DNA from: Eremomyces bilateralis CBS 781.70
Lineage: Eukaryota
NCBI GenBank assembly: GCA_010015585.1
Contig: ML975150.1
Strand: one strand, 5' to 3'
Length of the DNA: 64,000 bases
Position numbers and translations under genes: made by a program. Shown piece by piece: positions 1 through 22,142 of this stretch. Below the pieces are notes generated by a model. The model made no database searches. It was not told the origin of the DNA and saw nothing but the letters and a program-made list of their open reading frames with translations. Positions within the stretch are counted from its first letter, which is position 1; each line of letters opens with the position of its first letter.

Positions 1-1877
1 CTGAAGAGGAGCCTGCTCGATAGCTGGCCGATTATAGAGGACGAACCGCTTCGCATCATGGATAAAGCTTGAAATGCCAGGGCAATTACTTAACTAGCCG
101 AACTATTAGCGAAAGCACTTGACGTGCTAGAGGTATACTAACGGAAGTAAATAGCTCTATAGACGCGATAGCATGAGCTCCTTCCGACACCTTCCCCATC
201 CATCCAAGAGCCTCGAGCCAGTGAAGAAGATGCTCCTGCAAGAATTGATGTACTTGACCATTATCGCAAAGTCGAGCACCGCTTTTCTGGAGGTGCTGGA
301 TCCAGTAAAGACATGCGTACTGGACTTCAGGAGGAAGGCTTTTTTCAACTCGGCTTCTCTCGACATTGGCTACAAGCATGCCGGGGGCATCTACGCAACA
401 GATATCTTGCTTGAGTGATGACGACATAAGCTGGATACAGCTGTTGGTTAACACTTGGTGGGCTTCCTTCTCGTCTACCCAGAAATTTGGATCTCCGCAT
501 CTCTTTTTATCGAGAAGAAAGTCGCGAAACGAAGGGTGATGCAGGCGAAGTGGATATATGTCGACCTTAGGGACGTCTAGAATCGCATAAAGATCCCTGA
601 GCACCTGATCGATCTTTTGCTTGGTGATATTAAGCAGCCTGTGAAGCGAGCTGGCAGAGAGCGGAGAGAAGAGAACAACGATGCTTCCAAGAATGTGCCT
701 TTGCATGCCATACGATGCTTCCTTCTCCTTTGCTGAGTAACCTGACCGGATAGATTTCTTTAGGACGGTAGTATAGAGCTTATTAAGGTGTACTTCTGGA
801 TGCTCTTCTGGTGCAGGAATAGAGGTACTGCCTTCTAGCAAAATTTGCACTCTTTCGTCTGCGAGATAACCTTCTTGAATGAACCGACAAGCGGTTGCGG
901 CCCAAATGAACAATCCCCCTGCAATCTGGATCAGGCTTTTGATAATCTCTTCGCCTGGCCAGGAGTCATCCAGAGAGTGCTCCTGTCCAATAAGTTTAAG
1001 ATTATACTCGAAGAAAACAGAGATGTCATGATCTACGATTGAGGGTGATATGCTGTGAAGTACAAAATCCTGGAGATTCGCATTCGGTAGCTGACGGAAT
1101 CCATATCGGATTGGAATCTCAGGTCGGCTCGTTAGTAAGACTCGTAGTCGAACCGTCTTTAACAATCGAGCTTCAGCCAAGAGGTGTATGATAATCCGGA
1201 TGTTATTATCACCGTCGCACTCATCGAGCGCATCAACGATAAGTATGTACGAGGACTGGCTACCGCTTTCACCTAACTTCAATAGTGGACCTAGGATAAG
1301 CTGCTGCCACTGGTCACGGAGGGACTGACTCGTAATGTCGCGGCGCTCTATGATGGCATCGCAAATGTGCTGTTGAAGAGAGGGTATGTTGTTCGCCAGC
1401 TGCCACGCAATGCTCGTGATGAACTTGCCTGCATGGTTAACATCCCCACCGCCGCGCGAGAAGAAGAAGCTGGCTCCGAGATGCTTCTCATCGAAGTACC
1501 TGCGGGCGACAGTGCGCGCAATTGTCGACTTGCCCGTGCCGGCCAAGCCGTTCAACCAGAAAAGAGAGCGCCCATCTTGCCCGTCAGCCCAGTCGTATAT
1601 CTCTTGGAGGAGGTCGACGCGGGTATCGGGAAGGCAGGCCGGGTCGTGTTGTCGCTGGTATGCATTGAACGGCGCGTCCTTTGCGGTAGGGAGGGAGTTG
1701 AGCACATCGTTCAAGTCTAGATTGCTAGTCAGCTTCCTGCTGCTTTGAGGCCATAGCCAGCTAAGCACCCTCACTTTCGCTGCTCCTAAAGTTCACAGAT
1801 CCATGGATAGTGCCAGCGACAACCTGCGAATTCTGGTTGGCGGACACACCGCTAATGAGTTGAGTGCTGCCTGACAT
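1..1877 (-). CDS. Fungal NLR (NACHT STAND protein, HET-E/NWD-like, probably WD40 C-terminus beyond the window) with a short N-terminal amyloid-motif-like exon; 3' partial
   Basis: Exon 1 1877-1775 (MSGSTQLISGVSANQNSQVVAGTIHGSVNFRSSE); intron 1774-1717 (GTGAGG..GCTGAC..CTAG); exon 2 1716-143 with CLPDTRVDLL, P-loop GLAGTGKST, SFFF, Walker B LIVDALDEC, LLTSRPE, GLFIWA, HPSFRDFL, YACLYW; intron 142-94 (GTTAGT..GCTAAT..CTAG); exon 3 FIHDAKRFVLYNRPAIEQAPLQ runs off the edge, the segment that typically precedes WD40 repeats in HET-E-like proteins. Confidence 0.9.
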
Positions 1878-2184
1878 GAGCTTGGAGTAGCAACGCTAAG
1901 TTTTGCTAGGTGCCGGTTGTTGCTCTCGTCTGGCACATGTTGCCGTGTATATGGGCATGCGAACACCTGGGAGTGAGTTCATGTCTGTACGCAGATGAGG
2001 TTCATCCTGTTATGGGTTGAAACCCTTGGTTGGCTAAGGCTGAGAGCCCAAGCCTGATTAGGTTAAGGGTTGATTCAGAGTCCAACCCTCTTCGATGTAA
2101 ACAAAGAAGGCTTCCTGTCGCACGTGATGTGCTAAAATGGTTGGGAGTGAGGTGCTGTTGTTCCAGCAGCGAAGTTGTTGTATT

Positions 2185-2228
2185 GTTGTGTGTTAGTTGT
2201 GTGTAAGTTGTGTGTAAGTTGTGTGTTC
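2185..2228 (+). repeat. 11-bp tandem repeat, 4 copies (GTTGTGTGTAA variants)
   Basis: gttgtgtgtta gttgtgtgtaa gttgtgtgtaa gttgtgtgttc read directly. Confidence 0.85.
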
Positions 2229-3154
2229 TAGCTGAATGCCTGGTCCCCCGGCCCTAGAGCTACAGATATACGAGAGTCACGGCAAGATTATTAATGCAGT
2301 TTGTAGCCTTGGACTCCTAGAGCTCATGCCTTGGCCTGCGACACTTCCCCTTCTTGTTCTCTTCTTTAGCTTAATCTAGAATATCTTTGGCTATGTGTAT
2401 GTTGTGTGCATCCAGCTACCGTGCCGTAACACATCCTCAATCCTCAACTAGCAAATGCATTCGCAAGGCTCGCCAATCAACACTCCTGCCTTGCCGCTGT
2501 CCACTGCTGGAGAGCAGCTGTCGGCTGTAAAGTAGGGCGGAGCTAACGCCAAGATCATTTGTCGACACTGTCGAAAGCGAGCATCTTAACTGCCTTTCCA
2601 TTCCGGTAGCCAACGGGCGTTGTACGCCCTCTGAATTTGAAGCAATGTCTTATACCACTCTGGTTGACTATATTTATAATATCAAGCGCGAAAATAGAAA
2701 CGGAAATATTATCCACCATCTTTCGTCAAAGTAGGAACCCTTGATTGTGGAGTTTCTAGATTGGCCATGGCCGGTAACCCTGCTGGCTGCTGCCCTGTCA
2801 TCCGCTATAATTATCCCTATTACTCTCTAAGCCGGCTTGGTTTTGGCACGCGATGCTTATAGACACGTTCTTCCGGTCTTCGAATGCCTCGAGGTCGTCG
2901 CGGCCGCCCCTTCTGTCCCTTCTGCTGCGGCAGAGGCTAGTCGCAGCTGGGAACGGAGTCGTGTCAGTCATGCGCGAACGAGAAGGGGAGAACGATTGAG
3001 TGACAGGGGCCCGTTAGGAAAAGGCGCAAGGAAAGGCAAGGAGGGCGAAGGAGGTGAAGGGTGGGAACGGAACGCGGACGGAGAGAAGGTTTTGCAATTC
3101 TTTCGAAAAGTTGTAGATGGGGAGAGTTTAGAGAAAAGAAAGAAGATGAAGAAG

Positions 3155-4262
3155 TCAGAGTAAGGGAAGAGATACCCAAAACCAGAAACGGCAAGGGACC
3201 ACCATGTCGAATATTTTTAAAAAGTCATAGCTTGCATCGTCTATCATTCCTTCCAGCGCGCCATCGATGATTGCAATACCCAGGATATGGAACACGGGAC
3301 ATAACATTGGAACAGTGCTCTCTGTAAGAATGAAGATTTTCCTGGACAGCTCGCACATTAGCCTCAAGCTACGCAGAGGTCTAAACCCGCAAGACTACCC
3401 ACCGGTTACCGTGCCGCTTGACTCCTTTAGTCCATTGGAGATCGACGTCGATATAGAATAGATCCCTCATGGTAGGATCTACATACTTTACTAGCTTGAT
3501 CGTGATGTGCTTCTAGCATAGGCAGCGTAGCTCACTCAGGTCGGTAAGGTTGAATTCCGTATACCACGGCTCCGGTTCTTCACCTGGCACGTGAGATGGG
3601 CCGTACAGGATAGCACCTGGCCGAGTCGCCGTATAGGCGTGGATCAAGATCCCCAAAGGGAACTGCAGACGCATACGGTCGTTTTTGAAGAACAAGTCCG
3701 ACCGCTCCCAGTGCGTTTCCAAGATCGTATACAGATCCTTGAAATCAATCACTGACGCAGGCTCGCGAAGGTTGCTTAGCCTGTACTTTTTCGTGAATAT
3801 CTCAGAGATGTACTAAACCAGTTCAGCTCAGTTACAGTTACACCGAAGTCCGTCGCATATGTACCTACAGTAGTTTTCGTTGCGCCGCGGTCCACCGAAC
3901 TACGTCCGGGAACCTCTGATGTCGAATCGCGCCGAATGGAGTGAAATAGTTGTTCCATGTTACGGGCGTCCCGATCCGATCGATCTCCATAATGTACGCC
4001 AAGAAAACGATAATATCGAAGTTCGTTGCTATCGTCAGCCGGTCGTCTGAGGATCCGGAATAATTTCGATACTTGCAGAACCTTAGCGATTCCGTTAGTC
4101 GGCTGGTGCTCATTGCCATGCCCACAGAGCTTACATTTCCCATCTCTTTATCACTGATTTGTAGTTCACGCGAGTTGTTGTCTCCCCTCGTTTGTTCACA
4201 TCTCCTAGTCTTTGGACTTGTTCTTCAAATGCATTCAGTCCTAGCGGATCAACTTCCGTCAT
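3155..4262 (-). pseudogene. DUF3435-like tyrosine recombinase (Starship captain type), premature stops and C-terminal truncation
   Basis: Spliced model (introns 4134-4082, 3864-3813, 3402-3342) gives MTEVDPLG..KRWEMFCKYR..RKLL*YISEIFTKKYRLSNLREP..HWERSDLFFKNDRMRLQFPLGILIHAYTATRPGAIL..CLC*KHITIKLV..DLQWTKG..LCPVFHILGIAIIDGA. RxQ..YTATRPGA, TKG and CPV..L.IAI.D match DUF3435 motifs as I recall them. Stops at 3865-3867 and 3513-3515; similarity ends near 3195. Confidence 0.75.
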
Positions 4263-5742
4263 AATGTAATTGCGGGAAAATGAAGGTGTAGGGGTGCGGT
4301 CGGCTTCTTCCTAGAGAAGTATTGTAGTAGGAGCCTGGTTCCGAATCCGTAGTCCAGAACATCAACAGCAGAGGAAGTCGCCATTCTTGCAGTGCCTTGC
4401 TTTTAAGGTAAGCGATTGGATTGTCTCCTCAAAGATGTGAGCGGCAGCAAAGGATGCATCAATGACACACTAAAGTCCCAACAATGAAGCAGAGGTGCGC
4501 CTAAGATAGTCGGGCGCCACAGGGAAGGGATTGATTGCTCGACTACTAGTAGCGGAGATATCAATTCTACGAGGTGTCTTGGCACGATAATGAAAGCGCA
4601 AAGGAAAAATAACCTTCGAAACCCCGTCTAGAAACCTGAGAATTCTCAGGACACTTTAACCAGCATCTTGATGATAATCACCATTGCTCCATCGCGCTTT
4701 GACAGTATTTGACTCTTGATTCTTGCGGGAGAGGCTGGGTGTGTCTCGTCAAAGCGCATGGCTCGTGTTGGAACTTCTGTTGTGTTGGAACTTGGAACCT
4801 CATCGGGACCAAGCTTCCCGCAGTGAGAAAGTATCGCGTGGTCGCTTGTGTTGCTAATTGTCAATTTGCCATTCACCCGGATGCCGGATGCTGTCCACAC
4901 TCTATAAGCATTAAGACGCCACTTAATTTACTCCGCGATAGTCTCAGAATGTTCCCACGTGTCGGGCTAGTTCCCCAGGTCGGGCAGGTCCTCACCAGCA
5001 TAGCCCTGCTTAAGACTTAGATATCGGATATGACAGGGGGGCAGCACTGGTCAACAGTTATCATGATACTGGAGGTTGTTAGAGCCACTACAATGGGCGC
5101 TTAGCGCATGGCGTTAGTTGTAGTCTGTAGATAGTAGATATTGAGTAGCTGAGGAGAATAGTGAAAGCGGGCTCGGCAGGCAATGATGCGATAGTCGAAA
5201 GACCATCGCCCCTACGATAAGAAATGGAAAGAAGATCGGACGCGGCGCACCCAAAGGCGCCGCGGAAAGTATAATGACTTTTGATTGTATTGAGGTGATT
5301 CCACTGCTGCAGCAGAATCTATAGACTGATCCCGCCATCCGAGAGAGCTATCAATGCTAACGCTAGCAGCTCATGTATCGCTTCAACGCCCAAATGGGTA
5401 GTTGCTTTCGCTCCTGAGCGCACCAGTATTCCCCCCATCCCCAGAGCCGAGCGATCAATAAAACCATGCTTGCTTCCTTCCTATCGAGTGAGAGGTCCAT
5501 CCATCCGTGACCGAAAAATAGTCGGACGCCGGGCCTGTGGCCACCGTACACCACCGCCATATGCCGAATCCGAACGCGCCCGAAAGATGGTGACCTCGCG
5601 AGGGACCCTTTCTGGAAGTGTTGCTACTCGGGAAATAAAACCAAAGAAACGCCGTGGATGATGCAATACGCGTTGTCGGCGAACGTCAAGCGTTAAGAAG
5701 AAGGAAAGGATGGGTAGTGGGCACATGAGGATGGGCCGGGGA

Positions 5743-8446
5743 TCAGGTGATGTATTTGTACATCGAATCATCCTCCGGCATGCGGGCGAGATACTCCTTG
5801 TCGAGGAGCGACTCTATGCGCTTCTTGATCATGGTCACCTCGGGCTTGAAGTGGGAGGCGAGCTGCGAGATAGTCTCGCTGATCAGTTGGAGATGAGCGC
5901 AGGTCTTGCGTTGCCTGATTATACAGGTTAGTTCGGTTATTCACAACAGCCTAAATATTAGAAAAGGAGATAGGTACGTACTTCATAATGCGAACGATCG
6001 TCGCCTCGATGTAGTGAGCCCGCATCTGCCGCACCGAGTCATCCGTGTCCTGGCGCTCCTTGTCATTTTCGACTCTATTCCCCGCCGATACGACGCCGAC
6101 TTTGATGCGGATGAATTTGCCGGAAAAGCCCTCATTGAACTTGAAGCGATCGGTCGGCTTGATGTCTCGGGTCATCGGCTCCTTCAGGAGGATCCGCGTC
6201 TTCGTCGCCAAGGACAGGGACTGCAGGTTTCGCGTGAGTTCGTGGGGCGGAATGTTCGTCCGCGCCTCGATCTCCTCGTAGGTGAGCGCCTCGTTCTCGC
6301 TGAGGTCGTTGAATAGGAGGAGGATGATCATCGCATAGGTGGAGACATTGAGTTCGTGTTTGCGTTCCCGCAGACCATCCTTCGTGGGAACCTTAGGGAA
6401 GACGGCGCGAATGTCGGCGGTGCCCATGCCACCGAGCCAGGAGAGGACCCGACCGGAATGTCGGTTCAAGTAGAACTTTTCGAACCCCTTCTTCACCCGC
6501 TCAATCTCGGGAGGGAAGATCGGCCCTTGCGCCTTGTCCTGCTTATTCGGGTCGCGATCAAGTGCGCCGCTCATGTGATCCAGTGGCCAAACGGTGGCCG
6601 TGAGGACATGCATCGAGAGGTCGACTCGCGCAGGGTCATAGTCTCCAAGCTTGTCAACGTATGCCCTGTAGCCATTGCTCAGCTCTTCCGAAACGGTCAT
6701 GTCCTTAAACATCGACTCCAGCTTCGAGGTGAAATTGTTGCCGAGCTCGATCTTCATCCGGGAGATCATTTGCTTCTCCACGTCGTTGCTGACGGACTTG
6801 TTCATGAGGAGTCGACGGCTGAGATGCTTCTTGTAGTACTTCTCGAACATGTCTTTATCTTGAACGTAGCGAAGGAGAGTGATCGCCTTATCCAGCACCA
6901 GGTCCACTTCGTGCTCTGTCTTGCCTTTGATTCCCTTCTTCATGTTGTCGTCGATGAAGAGAGAAATGTATTCCGTGCCACGCGGGAAAGTGGCGGCATT
7001 GATGAACTCACTGAACACCTTGCTCAATGCCGCTTGTAGAGCCTGGTCCGAAGCGAACGAGAGGCGCCAGATCGTGTCGAATTTGTCCTTAAGCTGCAGC
7101 ACATCCTCTACCCATTTCATTGCAGCCGCGGTATGTTGATTGACAACCCGTTCGCCAGACTTCGTCGATCCATCCGAATATCCAGGAGCTGGCGCGGGAG
7201 GTGTATGGGAGGCTGCAAGAGCAGCCCTGTTGATCTCATCACCCATTTGTGCGACCCGTTTCTGGATTGCCGTAATCAATTCCGTCTTTTTGGAATCGAC
7301 TCGTGCATTAAGATTATAGACTAGGCTCAGTTCTTCGATGCGGTTGTTGTCACTCATGAACTTCACGCCATTCGGCATCGCAATGACCTCTGCTATCTTG
7401 TTTCGGATCAGCTCATCTTCGACCACTCTCCTGATCTTATCGGTTGTGGACTCCGACAGGGTTGATCGACACCGATCCTCCTCTTCCCGAATGCGGCGAC
7501 TCGCCCAGCGGCAGTAGGTCCCGGCATCATTTTCGCGAATCAGCCTCTCGGATTCCTCTCGATAGAACTCTGTGCTGGCTTTGAGAAACCTGGGCTGAAA
7601 GCGGGTAACGTAGAGGCGTGTCTCCTGTCCGTCGGTGTTCGACTCGTTCAAGCTTTCCATCATGTGAACACAAGACCGGATGAAGTGCTTGTTGATGGTG
7701 TCCCCATCGCGCTCCATGCGCACTTGGTCGAGAATGATCGTCGATAATACATCCAGTAGGTCCATTCCGTCTTCGCCTTTGGTGACGAGCCACTTGAGAA
7801 CGGTGTCACGGAAGAGCTCCATGCAGGCCTCAAAAATGGGGGTTCGGCGTTGCTCACGGCAGTAGACACGATCCTAGAAGTACCATTAGCACGAATAATT
7901 GTACCGTGGGGCACGGTACCATACCAAATACATCAGAACATCCGCCAACATGTTGATGCACGTCTGATGGTTATCCCATGCCTTGGTTGCTCCCTTCAGC
8001 AACAACTCTCCGCTGACTCTCCGCTCATTGACCGTCTTCGTGTCATACTCCTCAAAACTGAGAAGCGCCGACGATGCGAGGGTGTGCAGTCTCGGACGGA
8101 TATCTTCGCTCAGCCAGTCGTGTTCGAAATCGATGACCCGCTTGTAGAGCTGGTCTCCTTTGCGCTTGAGGACCAAGACGTAGGCATGGCGGTAGAGCTG
8201 CTCATATGACAACTGAGAGGCATTCTGAGTATGGATTTCGCGGAAAGAGTCCGACAATGTGACCCATGTCGGCTCGAGGTCGACATCGTCGCCTTGGATG
8301 TTCTGTATAGGCACGGATTCAAAGTGAGCCAACAGTCCCGCCATGGTGTAATATATAACTCTGTGGGAAGCAAATGGAAGCGGGAAAGAAGGATCGTATA
8401 CCTTTCGCGGAGGCTTTATCTTCCTAGCCCCACGGCTGGCGATCAT
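5743..8446 (-). CDS. CUL3: Cullin-3
   Basis: NASQLSYEQLYRHAYVLVL, EYISLFIDDNMKKGIKGK, DKDMFEKYYKKHLSRRLL, IVRIMK|QRK neddylation region, IKKRIESLLDKEYLAR; introns ~8401-8303, ~7925-7876, ~5981-5915. Confidence 0.95.
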
Positions 8447-8890
8447 CACGTCGACTCGTGGGACAAGTGAATCGCTACTTCTTTAACGTTTAGCGGCGAA
8501 TTTGGGGGTGGAAGCTGAGAGATATACGGTGGTGACGGGGAATGGAAAAGAGTCAGAGCGAATCCTCCAGGTTGAGAACACGGAGTGATGCACTAGACAT
8601 TCTACACGAAGTTGGAGCCGTTTAGGAAAGGTTCAGAGAAGTGAGGCAATGAAGAAGTGGTTGCGGAGGCAGGTAACCATGGAATGGCGGATTGGATTGA
8701 ACGAAGAATGAATGAACGCTGAGAGCGGGAGTGAACGTGGGGCCGCCCGCGAACAAGGATCATCGCGACTTACGCCCGCTTTGAGTTTAGTCCCAAGTTC
8801 TTTGTAAAGTGACGACGATGACAAAACTTCGTATTGGCCTTTGAGTCCTTTCTGATATACCCGTGTCACGTCGATAATACTCCTGGAAGA

Positions 8891-9479
8891 ATGCAGAGGC
8901 TACCGGCAGCTCGTGGCATCCGCACGCTTTTGCCATCATGGCATCAAGGATACGCATCCGCTCCTCTGCGGATACCATCGACGGTCCTTCGATCGTCTGC
9001 GAGGGCCTCGTTGTGGCGTACTTCTTCTGTCGCTGCGTGGAAGAGCAGTTTCTCGACCGCCAGGAGCCTTCGGGACCAGCGGGCACCTTTGACGGAACCG
9101 CCTAGCTCGGCACCAGCCGTGAGCGATGAGGAAGCTGAGCCCAAGAAGGACGTTCCGTCATACGATATGACCTTCACCTGCAAGAAATGCACCACTCGGT
9201 CCACGCATCGAGTGTCAAAGCAGGGCTACCACCATGGGACGGTGCTGGTGACATGTCCCGGGTGCAAGAATCGCCACCTCATCTGCGATCACCTGAAGGT
9301 AAGCAGCCATCGTCTGCGAAAAGGCTTCGTGATCCTGCGGAAGAACATTAGCTGATTTCGGGTCATGACAGATCTTCTCGGACTCCCGCATCACCATAGA
9401 GGATATCCTGAGCGACAAAGGCGAGCTCTTGAAACGCGGTGTTTTGAAACCGGATGGCGATATCGAGCTTTACAAATGA
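8891..9479 (+). CDS. ZIM17: Mitochondrial DNL-type zinc-finger chaperone (Zim17/Hep1/Tim15)
   Basis: Arg-rich presequence; [38 protein letters not shown]; intron 9299-9371. Confidence 0.92.
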
Positions 9480-19534: not shown

Positions 19535-22142
19535 ATGAAGTACCATTCCCTTCTTTTGCTGGGTGTTTATCTCAGCAGAACATACGCCCATCACCATGGC
19601 CATCACCAGGATCATCACTATGATCCCCACTATGATCCTCACCATAATCCTCACCATGACCCTCACCGTAATCCTCACCATAATCCTCACCATGATCCTC
19701 ACCATGACGATCACCACGACCGCCACCGTGGCCACGATATAGGAGGCGTACCTGCTGTCAGCACCGTAATCCTCACTGTGACCCCAGTTCCATCTGTGGC
19801 CCTTCCGCCTCTAAAGCCTTCGCCAAGTGCTTCTGGAATCAGCTCTCTCGTCTCGAAGCCTTCGCCAAGTGCTTCGGGAATTAGCTCTATCGTCTCGAAG
19901 CCTTCGCCAAGTGCTTCAGGAATCAGTTCCGTCGTCTCGAAGCCTTCACCAAGTGCTCCGGGAATCAGTTCCGTCGTCTCGAAGNNNNNNNNNNNNNNNN
20001 NNNNNNNNNNNNNNNNNNNNNNNNNNNNNNNNNNNNNNNNNNNNNNNNNNNNNNNNNNNNNNNNNNNNNNNNNNNNNNNNNNNNNNNNNNNNNNNNNNNN
20101 NNNNNNNNNNNNNNNNNNNNNNNNNNNNNNNNNNNNNNNNNNNNNNNNNNNNNNNNNNNNNNNNNNNNNNNNNNNNNNNNNNNNNNNNNNNNNNNNNNNN
20201 NNNNNNNNNNNNNNNNCACCGAGTGCTTCAGGAATCAGCTCCACCGTCTCTAAGCCTTCACCAAGTGCTTCTGGAATCAGCTCCACCGTCTCGAAGCCTT
20301 CACCAAGTGCTTCTGGAGTCTGCTCCCTCGTCTCGAAGCCTTCTAGTTCAGCTTCCGCAGGGACAGGTGCCGGGACCGGATCTGGCGGTCACTATGGACA
20401 TGAGGTTGCGGATCCAAATGCTCCGCACGACCACCCCACCGGCAGCACTCCTCCCTCTGCAAGCACGTCTGTTGGGAACGCCACGACAGTTGGAAACGCC
20501 ACGTCAGGCGGCCATTTTGGACATGAGGCTGCGGACCCAAATGCTCCCCACGATCACCCCATTGGCAGCACCCCCAGCTCTGGAAGTACGCCTGCTGGAA
20601 ACGCCACGGCCAGCGGCCATTTTGGACATGAGGTTACAGATCCGAATGCTCCGCATGATCACGAGATCGGCATCCCCACCCCCTCTGCAAGCACTTCCGT
20701 TGGAAACGCTACGACCGGCACCCATTTTGGACATGAAGTTGCGGATCCGAATGCTCCACACGATCACAAGATCAGCAGCACCACACCAATCGTCCCAGCT
20801 TCAAACAGTTCGGCTGCCGCGTATACCGCCACCGCCAGTGCAGGCCACGGTCATGGTGCGGGAAATGCGAGTGACGATCATGGTCATGGTTCGGGGAATG
20901 CGAGTGACGGTCATGGTCATGGTTCGGATGTTATTGCGCCTCCTGCAGCCACATCCACGGCTGGGGCCGATCCCGACCAAATTCCAGCCAACATCTTCAT
21001 CGAGCCGGCGTTGAACGGAGAACACGGGGAAGGCAAAGCGCTTACCCCTGGCGGGCGACTTGTTACCTTGAAGTACGGTCCGTATAAGGTGGACGCGGAA
21101 GGGATGGTATCGAATCGGCCGCAGATGAACATGGAGAAGCCGTGCAGTGACTGCTATATTGTCGCGCTGCAGGCGGGATTGCGGTACGAGGATGGAACGG
21201 TGGCTAATGTCGACAGTGGAGCGTGGCTGCACCACATGGTGCTTTACCTCCGCGGGACTGGGAGGAAGGATCTTGTCTGCGGTGGAACGCTTGGGATCTA
21301 CCCTCAACGAGTGTAAGATATAGACATGCACCGTCTCTTGGAAGGAGTTGTTAACCAGTCATTCTAGTTATGCCTCGGGCAATGAACGCGTCACCAGCCG
21401 TCTCAACAACCATTACAAATACGGCCTCCACGTCGGACAGGAAGATTCCCTAGGTATGATCTACGATCTCATGAATCAGGACACTACCGGAAAGACCTAC
21501 TACCTCACCCTCACCTACGAGGTCGTGGACGGCGCCGCAGCTCAAGGCTACAAGGCTGCCGAGATGGCTTGGTAAGTCACTAACCCCTTTCCATCCCCTC
21601 CCTCCATCAAACCTGTTCATCTAACGACACTTACTCCCTTCAGGCTCGACATCACCGGCTGCGGTATCTCTGAGTACCCTGCCCGCGAAGGCCTCTACGA
21701 AGTGAAATCCGACGGCTGGAATTCCACCATCAACGGCCGCCTCCTCTCCGCCTCGGGCCACGTGCACAATGGCGGCACTGAGACCGTCATCTACCAGAAC
21801 GGCGCGCCGATCTGCGTCTCGAAGCAGTTCTACAATACGAAGCCGGGCTTCGCGGCGACCGGGGCAGGGCACTCGCATGGCCGGAAGACGAAGAGGGAGA
21901 GCGGGTTAAATATCAGTGAGGCACAGACATGTTTGAATTTTGCGGATATCAAGGTTGGGGATACGTTGGTGGTGGGGGCGAAGTATGATACGGTGAAGTA
22001 TCCATTGGATCAGGATCATCATGGAGGTGGTGGGCCGTCTGACATCGTACGTATTTGTTCCACTGTGCTCCTGTCTATATGTGCGAGAGTAATGGCTAAT
22101 TATGCGCAGATGGGTATTAGTAGGGTGTATATCGGGAACTGA
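19535..22142 (+). CDS. Secreted His-rich, Ser/Pro-repeat protein with a C-terminal Cys-containing domain bearing PHM-like copper-binding motifs
   Basis: Signal-peptide-like MKYHSLLLLGVYLSRTYA; HHDP repeats; KPSPSASGISSVVS repeats; GHFGHEVADPNAPHDH-type repeat x4; C-domain TLKYGPY..PCSDCYI..WLHH..GNER..DLMN..WLDITGC..GHVHNGG..DIMGIS; introns 21313-21367, 21572-21643, 22047-22109; spans an N gap. Confidence 0.85.
19814..20345 (+). repeat. 42-bp coding tandem repeat (KPSPSASGISS(T/V/I/L)VS), interrupted by an assembly gap at 19985-20216
   Basis: About 7 visible units of aagccttc(g/a)ccaagtgcttc(t/a/g)ggaatcagc..cgtctcg flanking the N run. Confidence 0.9.

Follow-up and report, generated by a model that had tools for sequence, protein, structure and literature searches.

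Next to the core gene CUL3 in the genome of Eremomyces bilateralis CBS 781.70 lie the remains of a Starship-type recombinase gene, or captain, and a gene for a NOD-like receptor (NLR) with an amyloid motif at its N-terminus. This neighborhood raises the question of whether the receptor was brought in as cargo of a mobile element and, if so, where that element ends and where the effector partner of the receptor is encoded. The stretch of DNA analyzed, hereafter the window, comprises 64,000 nucleotides at C2:436106-500105 of the 26.9-Mb fungal assembly; C-numbers denote contigs of that assembly, and negative coordinates are positions to the left of the window start on contig C2. A first-pass annotation of the sequence had proposed that the NLR is probable cargo of a Starship-like element that continues to the left out of the window and may hold the effector further inside. 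Our data point to a much smaller unit: a gutted Starship-type element of ~7.4 kb was probably inserted downstream of CUL3, and has kept the NLR as its cargo.

Extent and decay of the element

The order along the window is CUL3, a 1.5-kb spacer, a broken captain of the DUF3435 family and an NLR with NACHT and WD40 domains. All three genes lie on the minus strand, and this order, which the first-pass annotation had already read, was borne out by Pfam matches and gene models. A repeat search of positions 1900-5800 returned no terminal repeat pair, and the ends of the element were placed from paralogous copies on other contigs. The 5' terminus (t5) occupies 4560-4677 on the minus strand, with its boundary at 4675 +/- 3, inside the interval of ~4300 to ~5700 that had been predicted for it, and includes a perfect 16-bp palindrome at 4635-4650. 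Homology of t5 to C12:224561 and C1:521258 stops at 4669, and C20:32824 has the same end. A 16-nt pattern from t5 was found at five sites in the genome, compared with none for the reversed control, and a profile search, with hits at five places, added a sixth. Three of the six copies (window, C12 and C24) precede a captain or captain relic, and three (window, C1:521265 and C20:32804) precede an NLR in the same direction, that at C20:32804 being truncated and distant. One t5 on C12 precedes an unrelated open reading frame (ORF) in tandem. The tandem, at C12:223127-227700, has its first t5 before this ORF, labeled HNH-like by eye, and its second before the captain, followed by another type of terminus; copies related to the HNH-like ORF lie at C32:5847 and C12:245153.

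Sequencing runs were also compared with the boundary (X1, DNA; X3, which we guess to be RNA; X4, from another organism; and X5). The part of the spacer outside the element (4678-5742) had no match in the other regions compared and has single-copy depth in X1 from 4801; a single-copy contig of that run begins at 4689. X4 has a stretch similar to 4602-4642, within t5.

The 3' terminus (t3) was recognized at five loci (two on C1 and one each on C16, C20 and C11) that share the DNA following the NLR stop codon up to one sharp end, and it contains a spaced inverted repeat. The window unit retains the inner 76 bp of t3 at -2678..-2603; the outer 35 bp are gone and the truncated tail of a long interspersed nuclear element (LINE) is in their place. 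The repeat at -2765..-2678 was considered as a miniature inverted-repeat transposable element and rejected, as its copies, like LINE tails, are cut at varied 5' points and all finish at one 3' end, in a (CT)n tail. Measured from -2678 to ~4675, the unit is ~7.4 kb long and has one cargo gene. Sequence comparison indicates that t5 and t3 are likely paired as the ends of one element. When both were read inward, only 1-6 of 3000 random 100-mers scored equally high for each of five t5 copies, and the subterminal motif that they have in common occurs at only two other places in 632 kb.

The proposal that the element runs far to the left did not hold up when 100 kb on that side was read. The NLR stops at -1929 (C2:434176), the partial t3 follows, and within 4-10 kb the left flank contains an ORF without Pfam match (-4427..-3795), a DENN-like gene and VAC14. 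Within 5-22 kb there is, together with the latter two, a gene that we take, by eye, to be MSH2-like. A large Starship reaching tens of kilobases to the left and carrying the effector partner is scarcely probable on these data. Accessory-looking DNA does occur further left, including NB-ARC-like and helicase-like relics at about -13 to -15 kb and a LINE relic at about -98 kb (labels by eye), but the core genes lie close to the unit, the 3' terminus comes directly after the NLR, and the DUF3435, HeLo and HeLo-like profiles had 0 matches in the 100 kb left of the window. The helicase-like and NB-ARC-like relics, at C2:421200-425000, gave no Pfam match, and 109 bp there resemble the DNA that follows the NLR stop.

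The captain is the first gene of the element, points inward and has its start codon (4262) 415 bp inside t5 and 1.48 kb from the end of CUL3. It is a pseudogene of which only the 5' part is left (3250-4262, minus strand), with an in-frame TAG at 3513-3515, and it stops short of both the YXXR motif and the catalytic half, so that the catalytic residues of the recombinase are missing. The relic matches DUF3435 at 26.2 bits over 3420-3740 (cut-off 25.8), with the one TAG inside the match. A longer dead captain on C12 shares 86% identity with it over 1434 bp; that copy, likewise broken, extends through the YXXR motif into a Cys/His region at the C-terminus. No strong signal of repeat-induced point mutation was found between the window and C12 captains, where transitions are symmetric. 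Homology of the captain to C12 begins at 3250 and that of the NLR upstream DNA to C1 and C32 stops at 3255. At this deletion junction (3250-3255), the three bases 3250-3252 fit both parents, as in deletion by microhomology.

What the first-pass annotation had called degraded DNA between the captain and the NLR consists of two parts. The first is a solo long terminal repeat (LTR; 2008-2431) with TG..CA ends and a 5-bp target duplication; it is private to the window copy, being absent from the C1, C32, C16, C3 and C20 paralogues, and its summed depth in X1 is far higher. The second is NLR upstream DNA common to the paralogues (2432-3255, minus strand; 93% identical to C1:2228881 and 83% to C32), which is cut differently in each copy, other copies stopping at 2534, 2559, 2566, 2604 and 3168. 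DNA resembling the solo LTR was also seen directly upstream of the amyloid exon of a second NLR, at C24:287219.

We hypothesize that the ancestral element would have had the order 5' terminus, captain, possibly other cargo, NLR and 3' terminus. An internal deletion would have removed the captain's catalytic half together with any DNA that separated the captain from the NLR; the solo LTR would then have entered the NLR upstream DNA, and the LINE tail would have replaced the outer 3' end. The copy would now be fixed in place, with an NLR that was left intact, as a sensor only.

The receptor gene and its paralogues

The first exon of the NLR is 103 nt long and begins at 1877 (1775-1877, minus strand, as for all parts of this gene); this spliced exon of 32 amino acids encodes a single HET-s-related amyloid motif (HRAM) of the HRAM2 type, the NLR-side motif being termed r0. 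A predicted GT-AG intron of 58 nt (1717-1774) joins the amyloid exon in frame to exon 2 (143-1716), which encodes a NACHT nucleoside triphosphatase and a winged-helix region and has no stop codon or frameshift (Pfam NACHT, E 7e-10; NPHP3_N, E 9e-32). The joint of 1716 to 1775 is present in three contigs of X3 and in none of X1; it is not copy-specific, and paralogues are a possible source. A second intron was placed at 94-142 by the gene model, and exon 3, of which the window has the start (1-93), continues to the left into the WD40 array. The 590 codons up to the window edge are open and free of stops. Beyond the edge there is a run of 1535 N inside the WD40 array, followed by the last WD40 repeat. 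We read the run as an unresolved array of WD40 repeats because N runs occupy the same position in six paralogues (C1:516934, C1:2226344, C32, C20, C3:1107893 and C5); the C32 copy shows the array as 126-bp repeats. A NACHT domain with near-identical WD40 repeats makes this an NWD-type receptor, most repeats of the window copy lying inside the N run.

The exon-1 peptide fits the HRAM2 definition, with Q3, hydrophobic residues at positions 5, 8, 10, 16 and 18, and G19, in a single copy at the NLR N-terminus; position 15 is Q, not R or K. A motif search of the genome gave 10 matches, every one at the start of an NLR; the motif is not modeled in Pfam, which matched 0 of the 10. An NLR at C15:440433 has a first exon with a partly duplicated amyloid motif of ~1.5 repeats. 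Ratios of nonsynonymous to synonymous substitution against seven paralogues were 0.19-0.36 by simple codon counts; the C16 paralogue has a stop codon and a frameshift.

In the genome, the NACHT region is matched 28 times; eight of these matches, the window copy included, form a close group at >=83% (83-100% nucleotide identity). Seven of the eight closest copies touch a Starship-type terminus; two are captain-less units of 4-5 kb, and three lie inside ends similar to those of Tardis elements. In the first captain-less unit, 5.2 kb at C1:516057-521265, NLR upstream DNA is joined directly to 120 bp of t5, and t3 is complete. This unit appears to have lost its whole captain by a deletion other than that of the window; its junction is also present in X3 (joint of 2534 to 4573). 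The second, 4.06 kb at C3:1106911-1110970, has both Tardis-type ends and only the NLR, which is 98% identical to that of C20, and it is the best candidate for movement in trans. At C20:285912-298577, an element of 12.7 kb contains a captain and the NLR and has a perfect 9-bp direct repeat matching the Tardis consensus. A sister element on C3, with a captain 96% identical to that of C20, is without the NLR cassette, and its junctions are not clean. The third NLR element between Tardis-type ends is at C32:12511-24471, with an NLR nearer to the window copy. The receptor thus appears from these sequences to be carried by at least two element families, with t5-type copies on the one hand and the C20, C3 and C32 copies on the other.

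That three paralogues lie inside Tardis-type ends and not behind t5 bears on an alternative history of the locus, which we consider unlikely. Two insertions would have collided in an insertion hot spot, one being a small captain-only element (t5 and captain) and the other an NLR cassette that moved by another route, with a Tardis-type element or by ectopic duplication, and a deletion would have fused them. It would fit this history that t3, at its three best loci, ends in a 7-9/9 likeness to the Tardis repeat, which t5 is without, and that the 60 kb searched beyond the C12 captain on its downstream side yielded no t3. The locus has also received the LTR and the LINE tail, and an 8/9 match to the Tardis repeat is present at -3581 (~0.13 expected by chance, an estimate). 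Two other observations argue against a collision: t5 followed by the NLR, in the same order and orientation, recurs at three loci with differing junctions, and t5 and t3 have the rare subterminal motif in common and score above background.

A second alternative is that the NLR is an old resident of the CUL3 side from which the other copies derive, and that an element landed alongside and captured it. The intact window copy and its short tree branch would agree with this. It is nevertheless very unlikely, as the window copy is nested among young copies (97% identical to C1:2227022), deeper relatives occur at other places, including C4 and C25, with an effector next to one of them, and the shared terminus closes the 3' flank. 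At 17 distant CUL3 loci, taken from a metagenome, 0 had a NACHT or captain match, only seven of these loci holding >=8.6 kb downstream.

Several observations weigh against the reading of one gutted Starship-type element. No direct repeat bounding the window unit was found, the outer 35 bp of t3 being gone and no matching word being present at t5, and in the two-ended C1 copy the end-to-end match is just three bases. Reversed t5 also scores 20-31 against t3; their likeness is short and its orientation poorly resolved. Moreover, the NLR lies antisense inside another element family on C20, C32 and C3, so that t3 need not belong to t5, and the 18 kb read at the close copy C3:180222 contained no terminus. 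An intact captain of the window lineage was not found among 25 DUF3435 loci compared of 46 matches, the nearest having ~28% amino acid identity. X1 and X3 carry the element, and X4 (no CUL3 at 80%) and X5 do not cover CUL3, so that an empty site was not seen; the 17 distant loci are only 53-64% alike and are also without the left-flank genes, and hence provide no synteny test. With these points weighed, the NLR most probably arrived by transposition as Starship cargo, and in this the first-pass annotation was most probably right.

The gene beside the element, CUL3 (5743-8447, minus strand), has a stop codon at ~5743 and matches Pfam Cullin at E 5e-180. The best matches of its product in the PDB are to Cullin-3 (E 7e-97, versus 3e-73 for Cullin-4). 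One contig of X3 (window 4133-7872) skips the last CUL3 intron and then continues without differences across the spacer and t5 into the first exon of the captain. It may reflect a long 3' region of CUL3 or overlapping transcripts that cover the element end. A small gene upstream of CUL3 (8822-9355), presumably Zim17-like, neighbors CUL3 at 11 of the 17 distant loci, and the downstream side is not conserved. Further into the window, there is a run of 232 N at 19985-20216.

The effector partner

The first-pass annotation had suggested that the effector partner may lie further into the element. We found none inside the unit or its flanks with HeLo and HeLo-like profiles, other effector classes not having been searched. 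The genome has 11 HeLo-like matches, and three of the genes have a double motif at their end: C25:17465, C15:733 and C2:1042954, the last being 600 kb from the window on the same contig. The C25 and C2 effectors are each head to head with their own NLR (C25:12288-18409; C2:1042642-1048000) and have different HRAM2-type variants. At C15:733 no NLR was present in the 8 kb read, but the contig ends there. Four HeLo loci had no double motif, and the terminus profiles had 0 matches in the 16 kb around the C25 pair. Two HeLo-like genes at C23:64113-67125 are convergent, and neither matched the motif profile.

When r0 of the window was compared with the effector tails, C25 scored 42 (0/500 shuffles scoring as high), C15 scored 24 (13/500) and C2 scored 18 (64/500). 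Two NLRs with another motif variant prefer the C15/C2-type tail. The repeats of the C25 effector are nearly identical to HRAM2-type tails listed in the supplement of PMC4518210. Going by motif similarity, the partner is most likely the double-HRAM HeLo-like protein on C25, acting in trans. The same supplement pairs an r0 much like that of the window with a C15/C2-type effector, which weighs against C25, so that the C25 protein counts as a candidate partner.

By analogy with the NWD2/HET-S system (PMC4518210), binding of a ligand to the WD40 array would lead to oligomerization, upon which the N-terminal HRAM2 motif would fold into a beta-solenoid. The folded motif would then template a HeLo-like pore-forming executioner in trans, most likely the C25 protein. 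With no effector found inside the unit, the earlier suggestion of a once-mobile amyloid module stands for the receptor, which probably moved alone here, and not for a receptor-effector module.

Comparison with known systems and implications

In PMC9156397, NLR cargo, degraded Starships ('Derelict') and nesting of elements are described. The window unit resembles these elements and those of PMC11162782 in having a DUF3435 gene at its 5' end, <=2 kb from the boundary, NLR cargo and possibly imperfect terminal repeats, in cargo that outlasted its captain, and in element nesting. It differs in size, with 7.4 kb here and 4-12.7 kb for the paralogues against a Starship range of tens to hundreds of kilobases, and in having one cargo gene where Starships have several; the survey of PMC11162782 excluded elements <15 kb. 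In addition, the window NLR combines an amyloid motif with NACHT and WD40, whereas that of Voyager is SesA-/HET-NACHT, and the window copy is without a direct repeat (PMC9156397, PMC11162782). With no direct repeat found and no empty site seen, the unit is not a Starship in the strict sense and is 'Starship-like' in the wording of PMC9156397. The terminus words were not found in the available part of the PMC11162782 supplement, which is no proof of their absence.

Tardis (10-bp consensus, PMC11230402) is similar in that the C20, C32 and C3 paralogues lie between matching 9-bp repeats, perfect at both ends of C20, and in that a similar word closes the t3 of the window family. In contrast, the window captain has ~28% amino acid identity to the Tardis-type captains of this genome, and the 9-11 bp direct repeat is absent at the window t5. 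In comparison with NWD2/HET-S of Podospora anserina (PMC4518210), the window gene is likewise a NACHT-WD40 receptor with a single N-terminal r0. An adjacent HeLo-related gene with a double motif was reported there in 98 of 155 cases; unlike NWD2/HET-S and the HRAM2 pairs, the window receptor has no adjacent effector, and at least eight close receptors stand against three effector genes, two of which have their own adjacent receptor. Amyloid signaling between non-adjacent genes has been suspected (PMC9815663), and links of NLRs with transposons have been described (PMC13449251). Our data agree with both in that receptor-side motifs outnumber effector-side ones and repeat-rich NLRs are tied to mobile DNA; they differ in that here the vehicle can be named, with its ends placed, as small derivatives of Starships from at least two families. 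A literature search whose scope left out subscription journals and bioRxiv supplements returned no account of mini-Starships with amyloid NLRs.

All parts are of known kinds; the variant lies in their arrangement, with dispersed receptors on mini-elements and the executioner in trans. Taken alone, the locus is rather ordinary, since NLRs are known as Starship cargo and HRAM2 has been described. The family picture names a vehicle for the known surplus of amyloid-tagged receptors over effectors, and it concerns elements below the current size floor of Starship surveys, for which short candidate end sequences are now provided. We tentatively suggest, as a possibility that we still hold to be doubtful, that captain-less mini-Starships serve as delivery cassettes for plug-in immune sensors. 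Mobilized in trans by captains from two or more families, they would have brought the receptor to at least eight sites, where its repeats would diversify while a shared amyloid code connects all copies to one stationary executioner. Two questions have been made testable: whether natural elements of 4-5 kb move with a captain in trans, which has so far been shown for an engineered element (PMC10104507), and whether a single executioner serves many dispersed receptors. If the suggestion is true, recognition would expand by mobility without copying of a toxic effector, and a horizontally transferred receptor would function immediately in any host that has an HRAM2 executioner.

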